From the IMG/VR virus record IMGVR_UViG_3300030419_004440, positions 1 to 64,000 of that record: 64,000 nucleotides of DNA; one strand, given 5' to 3'. The position numbers were made by a program, and so were the translations under genes. Shown here piece after piece: positions 44,978 through 62,559 of this stretch (positions are counted from its first letter, which is position 1; each line of letters starts with the position of its first letter). This DNA is from a virus. The notes under the pieces are model-generated. The model had not been told where the DNA came from, made no database searches, and saw nothing but the letters and a program-made list of their open reading frames with translations.

Positions 44978-45424
44978 TTACACCTTTAAAATTTCCCTTG
45001 CACTAAATTCTTTAAGAACAGGTATTCTTTGTTTTGTTAGTCTGTAAAATTCTTTTTCGTCTTCTTCGCTTTTAGCTATAACCGGCATTTTGCTGGGCAG
45101 ACTTATAATTTCCATAAGTTGTCCTATGTTGCCCTTTTGAAGGTCGCCTTTTGTATATAAGTAAATCAGTTTGATTTTGTTGACCACCTTATTGGCTAAA
45201 GGTACTGAGGGTAGCGTAGCCACGACTAACGTTCCGTTGAACGACCATAACTCTGTTGAATTGAAAGTTCCAAACTTTTTTTCAGTCGCATTAAAGTCAA
45301 CCTCGTTGTAAAACAGGCTTGCGTCATCCACGACCCCCTCTTCTATCCCGTCGTTAAGAAGTTTATATATTTCCCTATTAAGAGGTGTGTCCGTAGTAGC
45401 GTGGACATAAAATCCTAGGTTCAT
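44978..45424 (-). CDS. Hypothetical protein, possible isolated GT-B half-domain
   Basis: MNLGFYV N-terminal strand typical of GT-B N-domains; ATGA-coupled to fcl. Confidence 0.45.
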   Translation of the reverse strand: MNLGFYVHATTDTPLNREIYKLLNDGIEEGVVDDASLFYNEVDFNATEKKFGTFNSTELWSFNGTLVVATLPSVPLANKVVNKIKLIYLYTKGDLQKGNIGQLMEIISLPSKMPVIAKSEEDEKEFYRLTKQRIPVLKEFSAREILKV

Positions 45425-46341
45425 TTCTGTTCTCCTAAAAACCATTCTATGGTTTGCTTTAAACCTGTTTGTAAATCAGTTTTAGACTCGAAACCTAGCC
45501 TTGCTTTTGCTCTAGTGGTATCAAGACATCTGCGAGGCTGACCGTCCGGCTTAGATGTGTCATAGACGATATCCCCTTCAAAGCCCATTTGTTCTGAAAT
45601 TTCAGTAACGAGATCTTTAATCTTTATTTCCGAGCCGGTACCAATGTTTATTGGGTACGGCTCAACATCTTGTTCGATAGCCAACTCAATGGCTTCAGCA
45701 CAGTCTGGAGCGTATAGAAATTCTCTAGATGCTTCCCCGGTTCCCCATATAGTAACCTGACGCTCCCCCTTTTTCATCGCATTATAAAACTTTAAAATAA
45801 GTGCAGGTATAACATGACTGCTAGTCAAATTAAAATGATCATGAGGGCCATACATGTTGACCGGTATCAAATTAACACAGTTCATGCCGTACTGTTCATG
45901 ATATGTTTCCAAGAGCTTCATTAAAGCCTTCTTTGCAATGCCATAGGGGGCGTTTGTTTCCTCCGGATAACCATTCCAAATTTGTTCTTCTTTAAACGGG
46001 ATCGGCGTAAACTTTGGGTATGCACAAACCGTCCCTAGAAGAATAAACTTTTCAATGTTATGCATTCTAGATGTCTCAATCATGTTTGCACCCATAATCA
46101 AGTTCTCATACATAAACTTTCCGGGATTTTCCTGATTAGCACCAATGCCCCCAACGCTACCAGCTGCGTGAATTACAACATCTGGCTTGGACTGGGATAC
46201 AAGCGTATCGCATAGGTTTTGATTTCTCAGATCCCAGTTGCTTGACCCAATAGAAACAACACTATAATCTTTGTCTACTAGATGTTTTGTTAGGCTCTTT
46301 CCTAAAAATCCCGTACCGCCAGTTACTAATACTTTTTTCAT
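45421..46341 (-). CDS. fcl: GDP-L-fucose synthase
   Basis: VLVTGGTGFLG, AGSVGGIGAN, GTVCAYPK, ETNAPYGIAKK, SSHVIPALI, WGTGEASREFLY, KPDGQPRR. Confidence 0.93.
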   Translation of the reverse strand: MKKVLVTGGTGFLGKSLTKHLVDKDYSVVSIGSSNWDLRNQNLCDTLVSQSKPDVVIHAAGSVGGIGANQENPGKFMYENLIMGANMIETSRMHNIEKFILLGTVCAYPKFTPIPFKEEQIWNGYPEETNAPYGIAKKALMKLLETYHEQYGMNCVNLIPVNMYGPHDHFNLTSSHVIPALILKFYNAMKKGERQVTIWGTGEASREFLYAPDCAEAIELAIEQDVEPYPINIGTGSEIKIKDLVTEISEQMGFEGDIVYDTSKPDGQPRRCLDTTRAKARLGFESKTDLQTGLKQTIEWFLGEQK

Positions 46342-46343
46342 TC

Positions 46344-59751: not shown

Positions 59752-60883
59752 TTAATACCTCCAACATTCTTTCTCCTATTTTTTGATAGGAAAAATTCTC
59801 TACCACGCTTAATCCAGCAGATTTAGCCCTTTGCCTGTGTGCAATAGGATTCTCTTTATAGGACTCGTAATAGCTTCTCATATTTTCCCTAATTGTTTTT
59901 TCGCATGGTTGAAACCAGTACTCTCTTCCAGTAAACATGTCGGGAAAAGCCGCGTTAGAGCATTTGCAACAAGAAAACACTCCGTTTACTAGAGATCCGG
60001 TATTTTTGTCTTCTGGGTCTATAAATTCAGAAGGGCCACCAAAATCACTGCAAATAGGGGTGTTGCCAAACCCAACAGCGTCCAGCGAGGGTATCGACCA
60101 AGCTTCTCCGTGAGAAGGTAAAACAAAGCAGTCGCAATATTGGTGAACGGAATAAAGTTCTTCTTCAGAGAGGCGAACTGAAAGCACTCCCTCCTTCTTG
60201 TATTTTTCAATAGAATTATATAGTCTAAGCAACTGCTTCTCTCTCGTTAATATTTGTTCTAGCTCCGCGTGTGTTTGCTCTGGCGTTTTACCAAACTTAT
60301 TTACTTTTATAACAAGAGAAACGTCTTCCGCCCTATCAAACTCGGAATGAAAGCATGTAACTATAGATGCTATGTTTTTTCTATCGTTTAAGTCGCCCAC
60401 ATAATAAAATTTAAATGTGTCGTCGATATTTGGCAGGTGTATGTCTTTGTATTTCTTCTTGTACTTATTTACATCTGTTGCGTGATGCACAAGCCTCAAG
60501 GGTACACCTATACTGTCTTGCTCTAAGGATTTCATCAATGTCTTGTTGGGAACCCAAATTTCATCCATCTGTTGCAGTTGTTCAAACCAACCGATTGTTT
60601 TTATGCTGTATGATTCCACCTCTAAAAATGCGATGTTCTTTTTAAAGGCCGATGTACCAACAAGGTGATGCGGTAGCACATGTTGTATGCAAAAGTCGCA
60701 CTCGGATGAGTCTTTTTTCTCAAGTTCTAAAATTCTGGGGTGGACATCTGATTTATCTGATGTTAGTGTTACGTTTCGGCATACAACGTCTACACCCGCT
60801 TTATCTAGGGCTAGTATTTGATCTGTAGCGGCTTGTGACCACCCTCCGAATTCCTTATAATGTCCTATATATAATACTCTCAT
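59741..60883 (-). CDS. Glycosyltransferase family 4 (GT-B)
   Basis: Start MRVLYIG at 60883; DRKNI, DCFVLPSHGEAWSIPSLDAVGFG. Confidence 0.9.
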   Translation of the reverse strand: MRVLYIGHYKEFGGWSQAATDQILALDKAGVDVVCRNVTLTSDKSDVHPRILELEKKDSSECDFCIQHVLPHHLVGTSAFKKNIAFLEVESYSIKTIGWFEQLQQMDEIWVPNKTLMKSLEQDSIGVPLRLVHHATDVNKYKKKYKDIHLPNIDDTFKFYYVGDLNDRKNIASIVTCFHSEFDRAEDVSLVIKVNKFGKTPEQTHAELEQILTREKQLLRLYNSIEKYKKEGVLSVRLSEEELYSVHQYCDCFVLPSHGEAWSIPSLDAVGFGNTPICSDFGGPSEFIDPEDKNTGSLVNGVFSCCKCSNAAFPDMFTGREYWFQPCEKTIRENMRSYYESYKENPIAHRQRAKSAGLSVVENFSYQKIGERMLEVLNES

Positions 60884-62559
60884 TGAATAAGACCTCGCTG
60901 TTTCATCACTTCTACCCGTTTTTGTTCCCAGACATTCTTTCTTGTGCACATAGATACCATCTGATCGTACGCAGTGTCAAAATTGAATTCAATTCTATGG
61001 TTTATGCCATCAAAAGCCGCTGACGACTCGTTAAAATACATACCTCCGGTAGATGAGGTGGCAGACCGATAAAGCAAATCTCTTGTCATCCTAGCTTCAA
61101 ACCATGTGTTGAGTTTGCTTGGTTCTCCTAAAACATTTACAATTAACCATTTTGCAAGATTATTTGTTGAAAGCTGATTAGCATCTTTTGGTTTATCTGC
61201 GGGATTGTGGATGCTTGGTGGCGAAGCCCAAGTTTTTTGAACGGGCTCAAGCTCGATACTGTCAAAATAATCTTCCCACTTTTTACCACTTAAGTGCCAC
61301 TGAAAGTGTTTTTCAAAATTAGACCTTGTTTTTTTGCCTATGGATTCCCTTTCTTCTTCAGATAGATCAAAGAATTCTTTAAACATTCTGGAGGCTAAGT
61401 CATTATCTGGAACCGCACGCAGGCAGCCAGTCTCTAGTTCTTTATATAATGCAGCCGGTTTTATTGGGTACCCCTCAAGCTTTCTAACCTCGCTTTCCAT
61501 GGCTGAATAGTCCGTGGCCATGACCGGAACTCCACAGGCGGCGGCTTCTACAATTGGAAGACCAAAGCCTTCGCAGTTAGCATATTGAACATAAAGATCA
61601 AATAGATTGATTATATCGGATAACTGTTCGTAAGAGGCTCCATTCTTGACGTTGCTTAAGGTTGATCCCCACTTTCCGGTGTAAGGCGACTGTGCGACCG
61701 GACCATTAAAGAGAGATGGAAAAGTTTGCTTAGTTTCTGGGCATATGTAGGTAAATAAGACGTGAGAGGATAGTCCGTGCTCTTGAATCAACTCTGGTAT
61801 GTCCCACCCTAAATCTGGATAAGATGTGTGGCAGTAGAGATAGTATTTCTTATCCTCTGATTGGTCTAGAAATTTTTTAAATGCTTCGAATAAGTCCGGG
61901 TAAAGCTTGCGTCTTTGATTACGCATAACCGTTCCTAATATTTTATACTCTGGGTCTATTCCTAGAGATTTTTTATGCAAGGCCTTATCTTCTACTGGTT
62001 GATATGCCGGGTGTGCTGACGGGGGTGCTGACCCTAGGTAATTGATTTTACCTCCAGACTGATCTTTGAGAACTTCTCCGGCCCAGTCGGAATAAGTGAG
62101 GCAGGCGTCGGCGGACTGATATGTTGCCACCCATTGTCTAGCTTGGGGTCTAGCGTCTACCGTTGGCATAACAGCCCACTTGAAATAGTCTCTATATGGA
62201 GATCTTTCTGCGAATTCAAGCATCCAAAAGTCTCGTATATCGCAAACAATATCCGGCATAAAATCTAAACAGACATGCTCAAATATCCACTCCCCAAATT
62301 GGGCAGAGCCGTTAGATTGATAGGCCTGCAACTCTTCTTCTGAAGCTTTGGGTTCGCATGACTGGTTTGGTACGACACCGTAGTAACCCCAAGGTATGTT
62401 GGCGGCTCTGGGGTCATTTCTTTCTCCATAGGAGGACATTTCTGCTATTACATACTTGTCAGTACTATGAAGATAGTTCAATATTTCTCTGGTATAAGTA
62501 GCATAACCCGTATTTAGAAACGTAGCTTCGCTACAAAATAAAATTCTTTTCTTCCTCAT
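60880..62559 (-). CDS. Glycosyltransferase family 4 (GT-B), large
   Basis: Start MRKKRILF at 62559; TGYATY, VMRNQRRKLYPDL, EGFGLPIVEAAACGVP. Confidence 0.9.
   Translation of the reverse strand: MRKKRILFCSEATFLNTGYATYTREILNYLHSTDKYVIAEMSSYGERNDPRAANIPWGYYGVVPNQSCEPKASEEELQAYQSNGSAQFGEWIFEHVCLDFMPDIVCDIRDFWMLEFAERSPYRDYFKWAVMPTVDARPQARQWVATYQSADACLTYSDWAGEVLKDQSGGKINYLGSAPPSAHPAYQPVEDKALHKKSLGIDPEYKILGTVMRNQRRKLYPDLFEAFKKFLDQSEDKKYYLYCHTSYPDLGWDIPELIQEHGLSSHVLFTYICPETKQTFPSLFNGPVAQSPYTGKWGSTLSNVKNGASYEQLSDIINLFDLYVQYANCEGFGLPIVEAAACGVPVMATDYSAMESEVRKLEGYPIKPAALYKELETGCLRAVPDNDLASRMFKEFFDLSEEERESIGKKTRSNFEKHFQWHLSGKKWEDYFDSIELEPVQKTWASPPSIHNPADKPKDANQLSTNNLAKWLIVNVLGEPSKLNTWFEARMTRDLLYRSATSSTGGMYFNESSAAFDGINHRIEFNFDTAYDQMVSMCTRKNVWEQKRVEVMKQRGLIQ

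Follow-up and report, generated by a model that had tools for sequence, protein, structure and literature searches.

The window, that is, the whole 64,000-nucleotide (nt) stretch analysed here, is the first 64 kb of the 88.9-kb IMG/VR virus record IMGVR_UViG_3300030419_004440 (CheckV completeness ~53%), and its source is an uncultured aquatic phage with a genome of ~165 kb. On its minus strand, positions 44978-62559 hold a glycan locus, a gap-free run of 24 genes encoding glycosyltransferases (GTs), sugar-nucleotide enzymes and tailoring enzymes, which is a clade-wide, phage-resident and entirely soluble glycan assembly line. An original prediction, made from the letters of the window, had described a translationally coupled run of about 20 genes here and had proposed that the phage uses it to build an oligosaccharide on its own virion proteins. 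The coupled run is real, and its ends are exact, namely the ATG of the first GT gene (62559) and the stop codon of a gene for 148 amino acids (aa) (44978). The run lies within a 27-gene operon extending from ssb (62878) to a zinc-ribbon gene (43104), in which all 26 junctions have gaps of -17 to +8 nt, including nine ATGA-type (-4) and six TAATG-type (-1) overlaps. The phage origin also holds, as seen from the IMG/VR record and from complete relatives with direct terminal repeats.

In all genomes examined, seven core genes, designated A, B, C, d, E, F and G, follow ssb directly. The first three encode GT4 enzymes that match Glycos_transf_1 of Pfam: gene A (60880..62559, on the minus strand like every gene of the operon; 559 aa, GT-B) with E 7e-13, gene B (59741..60883; ~380 aa), which has an ATGA overlap with gene A, with E 3e-11, and gene C (58744..59751; 335 aa) with E 2e-17, the last also being EpsE/BshA-like in NCBIfam and matching SdgA/B at E 6e-9. 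Gene A carries a conserved C-terminal helical extension of ~130 aa (AlphaFold2 predicted local distance difference test, pLDDT, 83), and its best PDB fold match is B736L of chlorovirus NY-2A (3oy2, E 1e-16). Gene d (58331..58747; 138 aa) encodes a class-I methyltransferase-like remnant recognised from alignment motifs only: the consensus contains an "LRxGGxLV" motif, the S-adenosylmethionine (SAM) motif I is unclear, only the C-terminal half of the class-I set is kept, and neither Pfam nor NCBIfam gave a match. The product of gene E (57505..58329; 274 aa), a tentative GT, combines a Cys-rich N-terminal module with a GT-A-like body; C3, C6, C27 and C65 and an "FGIVI" strand are conserved in the alignment, and its profile matches are weak (the GT2 enzyme TarP, E 0.18; hyaluronan synthase). 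Gene F (56775..57521; 248 aa) is like a sugar-1-phosphate nucleotidyltransferase (NCBIfam archaeal GlmU N-domain, E 3e-8), with a divergent Gly-loop that reads GYRMKS in the alignment where nucleotidyltransferases have GxGTRM. Gene G (55897..56778; 293 aa) has no family-library match above chance, and PDB profile searches were uninformative for it and for gene E; its AlphaFold2 model (pLDDT 92.9, predicted template modelling score 0.90) is a compact GT-B fold, for which Foldseek returned GT1/GT4 enzymes as top matches (E 3e-7) and 151 matches at E<=1e-3. A weak match to NleH had raised the possibility of a sugar kinase, which was rejected on the GT-B fold of the model.

Between gene G and the conserved end of the operon lies an island of further genes. 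It begins with a GalE/LegB-like short-chain dehydrogenase/reductase (SDR) of the epimerase/dehydratase type (55004..55900; Epimerase E 6e-52), for which the NCBIfam scores (galE 5e-46, LegB-like 4e-43) are both below the cut-off. A probable GT-A enzyme of ~236 aa with an invariant ASDDM motif (54297..55007; family 11, tentative) follows, then an FkbM-type methyltransferase (53668..54288; Methyltransf_21 E 1.4e-20), an "FSLWG" hexosyltransferase of ~210 aa from a virus-dominated family (53036..53668; tentative) and a DUF6165 protein (52665..53036; PF19662 E 7e-16). The 228-aa protein at 51992..52678 is possibly the one originally called GT9-like, a call that could not be reproduced; it has no match above chance in Pfam, NCBIfam or the PDB. 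It is followed by a 261-aa protein, tentatively and weakly GT47/exostosin-like (51214..51999; PF03016 E 0.0025, below the cut-off), a GT32-type GT with a DXD region (50313..51221; Gly_transf_sug E 1e-9, Caps_synth E 1.4e-6), and a 250-aa protein (49561..50313) that shares only the GT32 "GGxYAD" motif region with its neighbour (BLASTP E 0.047 over 20 aa) and is again tentative. PDB profile searches found no solved-structure match for the family 11 and 250-aa proteins. The island continues with a GT2 enzyme (48818..49564; Glycos_transf_2 E 1.7e-9), a DUF723 homing-endonuclease-like insert that is no glycan enzyme (48277..48828; PF05265 E 2e-6), a PIG-L family de-N-acetylase (47723..48277; PF02585 E 5e-11), a CgeB-like GT-B enzyme of family 17 (46863..47726; Glyco_trans_1_2 E 4e-19), a 172-aa protein with no match in Pfam or NCBIfam (46344..46862), and an SDR like GDP-L-fucose synthase (Fcl/GMER) at 45421..46341. 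The last matches NF047922 over its full length (E 6e-92) with 308 bits against a cut-off of 500 bits and has a 70% identical ortholog in the complete relative G1. The run closes with end gene x (44978..45424; 148 aa, Rossmann-like), which has an invariant FNST..W.F motif in the alignment and looks like half a Rossmann domain. The motif changes in genes d, F and x would be compatible with some of them being pseudo-enzymes.

The run thereby holds seven well-supported and five tentative GTs, the firm ones resting on Pfam E-values or, for 55897-56778, on the AlphaFold2 model and Foldseek. From the roughly 11 GTs of the original prediction, the three GT4 enzymes, one GT2, one GT32-type enzyme and the CgeB-like enzyme stand, while the GT47-like, second GT32 and FSLWG assignments remain weak; the compact GT-B enzyme of gene G may not have been among those counted. 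The predicted donor enzymes (Fcl-like, epimerase-type SDR and nucleotidyltransferase-like) were borne out, as were the FkbM and PIG-L tailoring enzymes; the other methyltransferase-like gene of the run is the remnant, gene d.

The locus is not a feature of one phage. The comparison covered 38 clusters, made up of 36 merged loci (each a gene A-centred locus paired with a zinc-ribbon-centred one), G1 and the window; the zinc-ribbon gene that served as the anchor for merging is 66-95% identical in 80 loci. Clustering of the 711 open reading frames (ORFs) of these clusters revealed an invariant order, A, 0-6 genes, B C d E F G, 1-16 genes, x y z. Each of the seven core genes is present in 38/38 genomes, and gene x and the 254-aa and 257-aa end genes likewise occur in all 38 clusters. 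Island genes are inserted at two places, A|B and G|x; a genome has 1-17 of them, and together they fall into 108 families, of which 60 are singletons. Measured from gene A to the zinc-ribbon gene, the locus is 9.5 to 23.6 kb long over the clade (19.5 kb in the window). In its smallest version, the locus consists of A-G and a GT2 gene, usually with a GT-D-like gene too. Family 11 is found in 18/38 clusters and family 17 in 9/38. The locus is a clade-wide conserved seven-gene core with hypervariable islands, an architecture that the original prediction had missed.

A Pfam census of the islands gave, for sugar and transfer families, GT2 (seven), DegT (four), SDR (three), NTP_transferase (three) and GT-D-like (two), together with FkbM (four), other SAM-dependent methyltransferases (four), HAD (three), FdtA (two) and CTP_transf_3 (two); rhamnosyl O-methyltransferase-like proteins, cupins and a UDP-N-acetylglucosamine (GlcNAc) 2-epimerase also occur, and the nucleotidyltransferases are RmlA-type. 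The pathways represented are those of fucose, an amino-dideoxyhexose (FdtA/DegT) and an Epimerase_2/cytidylyltransferase set, with the PIG-L deacetylase in the island of the window. The guanine-plus-cytosine (GC) content of the islands tracks the core GC of each genome over a range of 0.28-0.42, indicating that the islands are old phage residents rather than fresh host imports. Low-GC sub-lineages (core GC 0.28-0.34) have islands of 1-6 genes, and higher-GC ones (0.35-0.42) have 9-17 genes. The DUF723 ORF (48277-48828) inside the island, a singleton among the 38 clusters, and the conserved 254-aa end gene (44212-44976), with its weak DUF559 match, may contribute to the turnover of the islands.

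Each of the four complete relatives, those without an island fcl included, has a full-length gmd-like gene well away from the locus (G001:18839-19918; G002:119530-120519; G004:138008-139048; G005:16080-17120), with scores of ~345-385 bits, below the 415-bit cut-off. No gmd was found in the 88.9-kb record, which has the Fcl-like gene and covers about half of its genome. The dispersed gmd-like genes point to a dispersed sugar-nucleotide toolkit, and their presence in all four complete relatives suggests that the conserved part of the glycan probably contains a GDP-mannose-derived 6-deoxyhexose.

No gene of the locus is better conserved than gene A, which shows 68-88% identity over the clade. When 77 ORFs are compared with the most distant complete relative, gene A takes 6th place in conservation; ribonucleotide reductase and PhoH are conserved to a similar degree, and DnaB, DnaE, RecA and the structural proteins compared are all less conserved. 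This is in keeping with a role central to the phage and not with a patchily distributed accessory gene. In IMG/VR it has 248 homologues with 67-88% identity, on contigs of up to 174 kb, several of which are complete with terminal repeats, and in metagenome collections it is represented by at least 3757 protein clusters (90% identity). Gene A likely encodes the acceptor-recognising initiating enzyme.

The original prediction had also held that the machinery is soluble and works without membrane partners. Membrane segments were sought with a crude hydropathy scan (19-residue window, Kyte-Doolittle mean >=1.6), and no cluster ORF of the window reaches this threshold. Among the 711 cluster ORFs, 13 have marginal single hydrophobic segments and none is polytopic; by the same scan, no polytopic protein of >=300 aa is encoded in the complete relatives G1, G2, G4 and G5. 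The only multi-span candidate in these relatives is an ORF of 245-264 aa with ~6 hydrophobic segments and no Pfam match, located towards one end of the genome in both G1 and G2 (L094:12944-13678, plus strand; L197:4561-5352, minus strand). The initiating phosphoglycosyl transferase family Bac_transf (PF02397) is absent from 5/5 genomes, and a WecA-type enzyme, which has 11 transmembrane (TM) segments, is excluded because polytopic proteins are lacking. Neither a flippase nor a polymerase nor an ABC permease was seen by hydropathy in the 38 clusters or the four complete genomes, and multi-TM proteins of the size expected for Gtr-type serotype conversion were not found beside the GTs, as judged by hydropathy rather than by family hidden Markov models. 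A soluble PAP2 phosphatase encoded past the end of the window was considered as a mark of lipid-carrier recycling and was rejected, having no hydrophobic segment and being accessory in the clade. On sequence grounds, a phage-encoded lipid-carrier pathway is excluded.

The best reading of the acceptor, reached by exclusion and analogy, is the phage's own proteins, most likely those of the particle, to which we assign a rough probability of 0.45. Of the original proposal, the soluble, carrier-free machinery stands and a target other than DNA is supported, whereas placement of the glycan on virion proteins is a candidate reading by the same exclusion and analogy. Sugars would be added singly from nucleotide-sugar donors in the host cytoplasm, with neither a lipid carrier nor a flippase nor a polymerase. 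The chain would be started by the gene A enzyme, which has the C-terminal extension, on at least one particle protein of the phage; the core enzymes would build a conserved inner oligosaccharide, and the island enzymes would add a strain-specific, partly methylated outer part, which in the window's phage would include fucose. The product would be a variable virion glycan coat, analogous to the core-plus-variable glycans of chlorovirus capsids.

Several observations favour an own-protein acceptor. Every genome has the core, which is under strong purifying selection, in contrast to the patchy distribution of genes that are clearly directed at the host, and the hypervariability of the outer glycan suggests selection by an agent outside the cell. 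Some of the GTs are members of families in which viruses dominate: the FSLWG GT clusters of a protein atlas are 91-99% viral, the top one being auto-named "Hexosyltransferase", and the only PDB profile match of this GT, a weak one (E 0.53), is the capsid-glycan GT domain of PBCV-1 A64R. In addition, relatives encode large, Cys-rich proteins without a signal peptide that contain poly-Thr/(Thr-Ser)n linkers (G1, G4, G5 and L186; L086:2770-5127, minus; L100:9823-12939, minus; L100:13442-14407, minus; L200:946-2367, plus; L186:15051-19592, minus). Long linkers of this kind are classic O-glycan carriers. Pfam scans of these proteins gave no function; the one from G1 additionally contains a Hint-like domain.

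Other observations weigh against this assignment. No acceptor protein, sequon or protein-specific initiating transferase family was found, and poly-Thr or Ser-Thr-rich stretches are absent from G2 and from the partial 88.9-kb record; missing in G2, the poly-Thr proteins cannot be the universal acceptor of a universal core. The excess of Ser-Gly in virion proteins of the window (2.6x in the 4221-aa and 2.9x in the 248-aa protein, and also in a 775-aa protein) makes these proteins possible acceptors but is no evidence of glycosylation, and it may simply stem from FG-GAP-type turns. The fold and sequence links of gene A to chloroviruses are only marginally ahead of those to bacterial MshA and BshA, and cluster enzymes may bind the membrane peripherally, a mode for which the hydropathy scan is crude. 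The cluster also lies within the transcription unit of the replication genes and is without the GTGTATAAT late-type motif of the structural genes (G0, G1 and G4).

A serious rival, which we regard as less likely, is remodelling of the host envelope. Here, soluble or peripheral GTs would, on the cytoplasmic side of the inner membrane, glycosylate a host acceptor (lipid A-core or lipooligosaccharide, a membrane glycolipid, or an undecaprenyl-linked primer from a host initiating enzyme), the host's MsbA, Wzx or ABC transporter and WaaL would export the product, and the altered cell surface would block superinfection or stop progeny from adsorbing to debris. GT4, GT2, GT32, FkbM and Fcl are what bacterial O-antigen, lipopolysaccharide (LPS)-core and capsule loci commonly contain; the top NCBIfam match of gene A is GlcNAc-phosphatidylglycerol synthase (E 9e-10), and WaaG is among its fold matches. 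LPS-core assembly requires no phage-encoded membrane protein, and the same would hold for a host glycolipid acceptor at the cytoplasmic face; co-transcription with early/middle replication genes and the missing late-type motif also fit this reading. Moreover, the GT-rich hypervariable islands of other marine myophages, the pelagimyophages and cyanomyophages, have been read as modifying the host O-chain (PMC7029224). However, the universal core and a gene A conserved like ribonucleotide reductase and PhoH contrast with the patchiness of host-directed exported genes, the islands are compositionally ameliorated to each phage, and some GTs come from virus-dominated families. The host would also have to start, flip and ligate the product of 8-25 foreign steps across diverse hosts, which is demanding, and the four complete genomes encode no initiating transferase and no Gtr-type or O-antigen-modifying membrane protein. 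Another cytoplasmic acceptor, be it a non-virion phage protein, a host protein, a small molecule or a free oligosaccharide, is improbable. The sequence does not fix the acceptor, and GT4 relatives that act on small molecules (MshA, BshA and tetrahydrobiopterin glucosyltransferase) rank high among the fold matches; however, for a product unseen outside the cell, hypervariability of the outer glycan would be difficult to account for, and no exporter is encoded in the clusters or complete relatives, as judged by hydropathy.

Glycosylation of the phage's DNA is unlikely, and strongly so. In this scheme, the three GT-B enzymes behind ssb and dnaE would glycosylate a modified base and later enzymes would extend the chain, as in T-even phages, RB69 and DLP3. 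Such a role would agree with the position of the locus immediately after replication genes, with the encoded deoxynucleoside monophosphate (dNMP) kinase of the T4 gp1 type and with the conservation of gene A at the level of nucleotide-metabolism enzymes; DNA glycans of several sugars are also on record, in the form of poly-arabinosylated cytosines (PMC13326640). ThyA homologs are the known source of the precursors 5-hydroxymethylcytosine (5hmC), 5-hydroxymethyluracil (5hmU) and 5-hydroxycytosine (5hoC), including the poly-arabinosylated bases of RB69 and DLP3 (PMC13326640). The original prediction had seen no base-modifying enzyme in the window, and a search of whole genomes, the four complete relatives among them, for the genes of known DNA-glycosylation routes has now found none either: thymidylate-synthase homologs (PF00303) and C5 DNA methyltransferases (PF00145) are absent from 5/5 genomes with working controls, as is TGT/DpdA (PF01702), for which the control matched 14/14. 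Tet_JBP (PF12851) was also found in 0/5 genomes, but the control genomes were silent too, which makes this result uninterpretable for the post-replicative thymine-dioxygenase route. ThyX is present in complete relatives, indicating ordinary synthesis of thymidine monophosphate. In the window's genome, GCGC occurs 0 times against 120 expected and CCWGG (CCAGG/CCTGG) 0 times against ~100 expected, and neither GGATCC nor CTGCAG occurs in any of the three genomes examined, namely G0 and the relatives G1 and G4 (these two at L086-L103); such extreme avoidance suggests that the DNA is exposed to restriction enzymes. Furthermore, 8-25 enzymes with deoxyamino-sugar and methylation pathways are far beyond any known DNA glycan. 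The outcomes that the original prediction had named as pointing away from the virion, glycosylated DNA and membrane-bound LPS or capsule partners, are thereby removed as far as genomes can remove them.

The gene map around the locus falls into two parts by strand. The plus strand at 1-43 kb encodes giant tail/fibre-type proteins of 2218, 4221, 1760 and 1510 aa, and Pfam and PHROG scans of the plus-strand virion genes gave nothing usable, the giant proteins having no match. The motif TTCGTGTATAA(A/T) occurs at 4701-4711 and 40224-40234 (plus strand), just upstream of the structural genes for 394 and 248 aa; in G1 and G4, GTGTATAAT also precedes the tape-measure gene among other structural genes, and no copy lies in the glycan locus. 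This candidate late promoter has two exact copies in the window, its mismatch-tolerant count was reached in 2/100 shuffles, and it is a lead rather than a finding. A radical SAM gene (Radical_SAM and Fer4_12) and a neighbour of 288 aa occupy 41083-42751 (plus strand), after the last structural gene and before the end of the operon; they have counterparts in 0 of ~160 related loci and hence are a strain-specific insertion.

From 43.1 kb to the contig end, all genes are on the minus strand. The operon end (43104..44976) consists of the 254-aa gene (weakly DUF559 endonuclease-like), a 257-aa gene and the 111-aa zinc-ribbon gene, all with weak Pfam matches, which are probably DNA-metabolism rather than glycan genes. 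At the other end, ssb (62561..62878; Pfam SSB E 2e-9) is the first operon gene and no glycan gene, preceded by a promoter-bearing gap of 81 bp. Beyond it follow a dnaE split into halves with an exonuclease gene between them, and genes for a PD-(D/E)XK nuclease, the dNMP kinase, a primase, an IMPDH/GMP-reductase-like protein, DnaB, RecA, PhoH and ribonucleotide reductase. A sigma-70-like TTGACA-N17-TATACT element lies at genome position 87218-87344. The PAP2 gene and three DUF1501 paralogs (genome 66932-72915) are neighbouring exported genes found in 24-36/82 loci only, hence accessory, and are unlinked to the glycan locus.

Megablast and tblastn against 50,697 phage records revealed no close cultured relative, and tblastn of gene A against these records gave weak matches only, to GTs of Tetrasphaera and Pontimonas phages. 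The clade is distinct from the "moraphage" (PMC12619734), which was considered and is a different, jumbo lineage. Clade contigs L104-L107 have been deposited in metagenome-assembled genomes labelled Verrucomicrobiales, Flavobacteriales and SAR202; these labels are mutually inconsistent and so are probably binning artefacts, and no host call was made from them.

With virion proteins as the target, aquatic phage particles would wear strain-specific glycan coats on a scale known only from giant algal and amoebal viruses, which would bear on adsorption, particle stability, stickiness in marine gels, recognition by host defences and grazers, and the definition of phage "type". We tentatively suggest, at somewhat less than even odds, that this globally abundant clade gives its particles a bacterial-style "serotype", in which a seven-enzyme inner oligosaccharide carries an outer glycan diversified at two recombination hot spots with >100 families. 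If so, this would be the viral equivalent of an LPS core plus O-antigen, built directly on virion proteins in the cytoplasm, and would surpass every known bacteriophage glycosylation system in size and variability. With the host surface as the target, no lytic phage would be known to invest more in rewriting the cell envelope. Either target leaves a testable system of seven core genes in which one highly conserved GT probably initiates the chain, a large collection of soluble GTs and methyltransferases that work independently of lipids, and gene A as a marker for a very abundant uncultured phage clade.

The closest known systems resemble the locus in different respects. The GTs of chloroviruses are soluble and expressed early, and these viruses combine a common core with variable glycans and encode GMD and GMER (PMC5408694). 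Capsid glycosylation in chloroviruses (PBCV-1: A064R, A111/114R, A075L, A546L/B736L, GMD, GMER) is like the present system in its mostly soluble virus-encoded GTs, virus-encoded GDP-fucose pathway, glycan methylation and strain-specific outer sugars on a common core. However, these are eukaryotic giant viruses with 6-8 dispersed GT genes rather than one operon, and their glycans have been shown chemically on the capsid protein, the target here being a predicted one. Identity to the chlorovirus enzymes is <=15%, which argues for analogy and distant fold kinship and not for membership. The DNA glycosylation of T4 and of RB69/DLP3 shares GT-B enzymes beside replication genes, yet its defining base-hydroxylating or base-hydroxymethylating enzyme is absent here, and the DNA here avoids restriction sites.

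Pelagimyophages and cyanomyophages are likewise large aquatic phages with non-syntenic islands rich in GTs and deoxy-sugar enzymes (PMC7029224). Unlike the present clade, they are T4-like and carry a GT8-rich island among the tail-fibre genes, with no conserved multi-GT core; the present clade has a split DnaE and its locus behind ssb. Flagellin glycosylation islands and the Gtf/dGT1 pathways of serine-rich-repeat adhesins carry out sequential cytoplasmic protein O-glycosylation independent of a lipid carrier. Such bacterial islands are strain-variable, with deoxyamino-sugar and methylation genes, and GT-D-like (DUF1792-type) members occur here too; their acceptors, in contrast, are secreted cell-surface proteins, and Maf, GtfA/B and other protein-specific initiating families were not detected in the present clade.

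The mycobacteriophages Che8, Corndog and Myrna reportedly glycosylate their own virions, as attributed to Freeman et al. 2023 in the summary of PMC12619734. As here, phage-encoded cytoplasmic GTs are used, and theirs modify the phages' own capsid and tail-tube subunits and produce a glycan shield. Those systems differ in having few GTs, in using C-terminal extensions as targets and in belonging to phages of Actinobacteria, whereas the present clade has 8-25 genes, a universal seven-gene core and hypervariable islands, with no acceptor tag in the window. The present locus is a virus-encoded glycosylation system far larger than those of the mycobacteriophages, organised as a conserved core with hypervariable islands.

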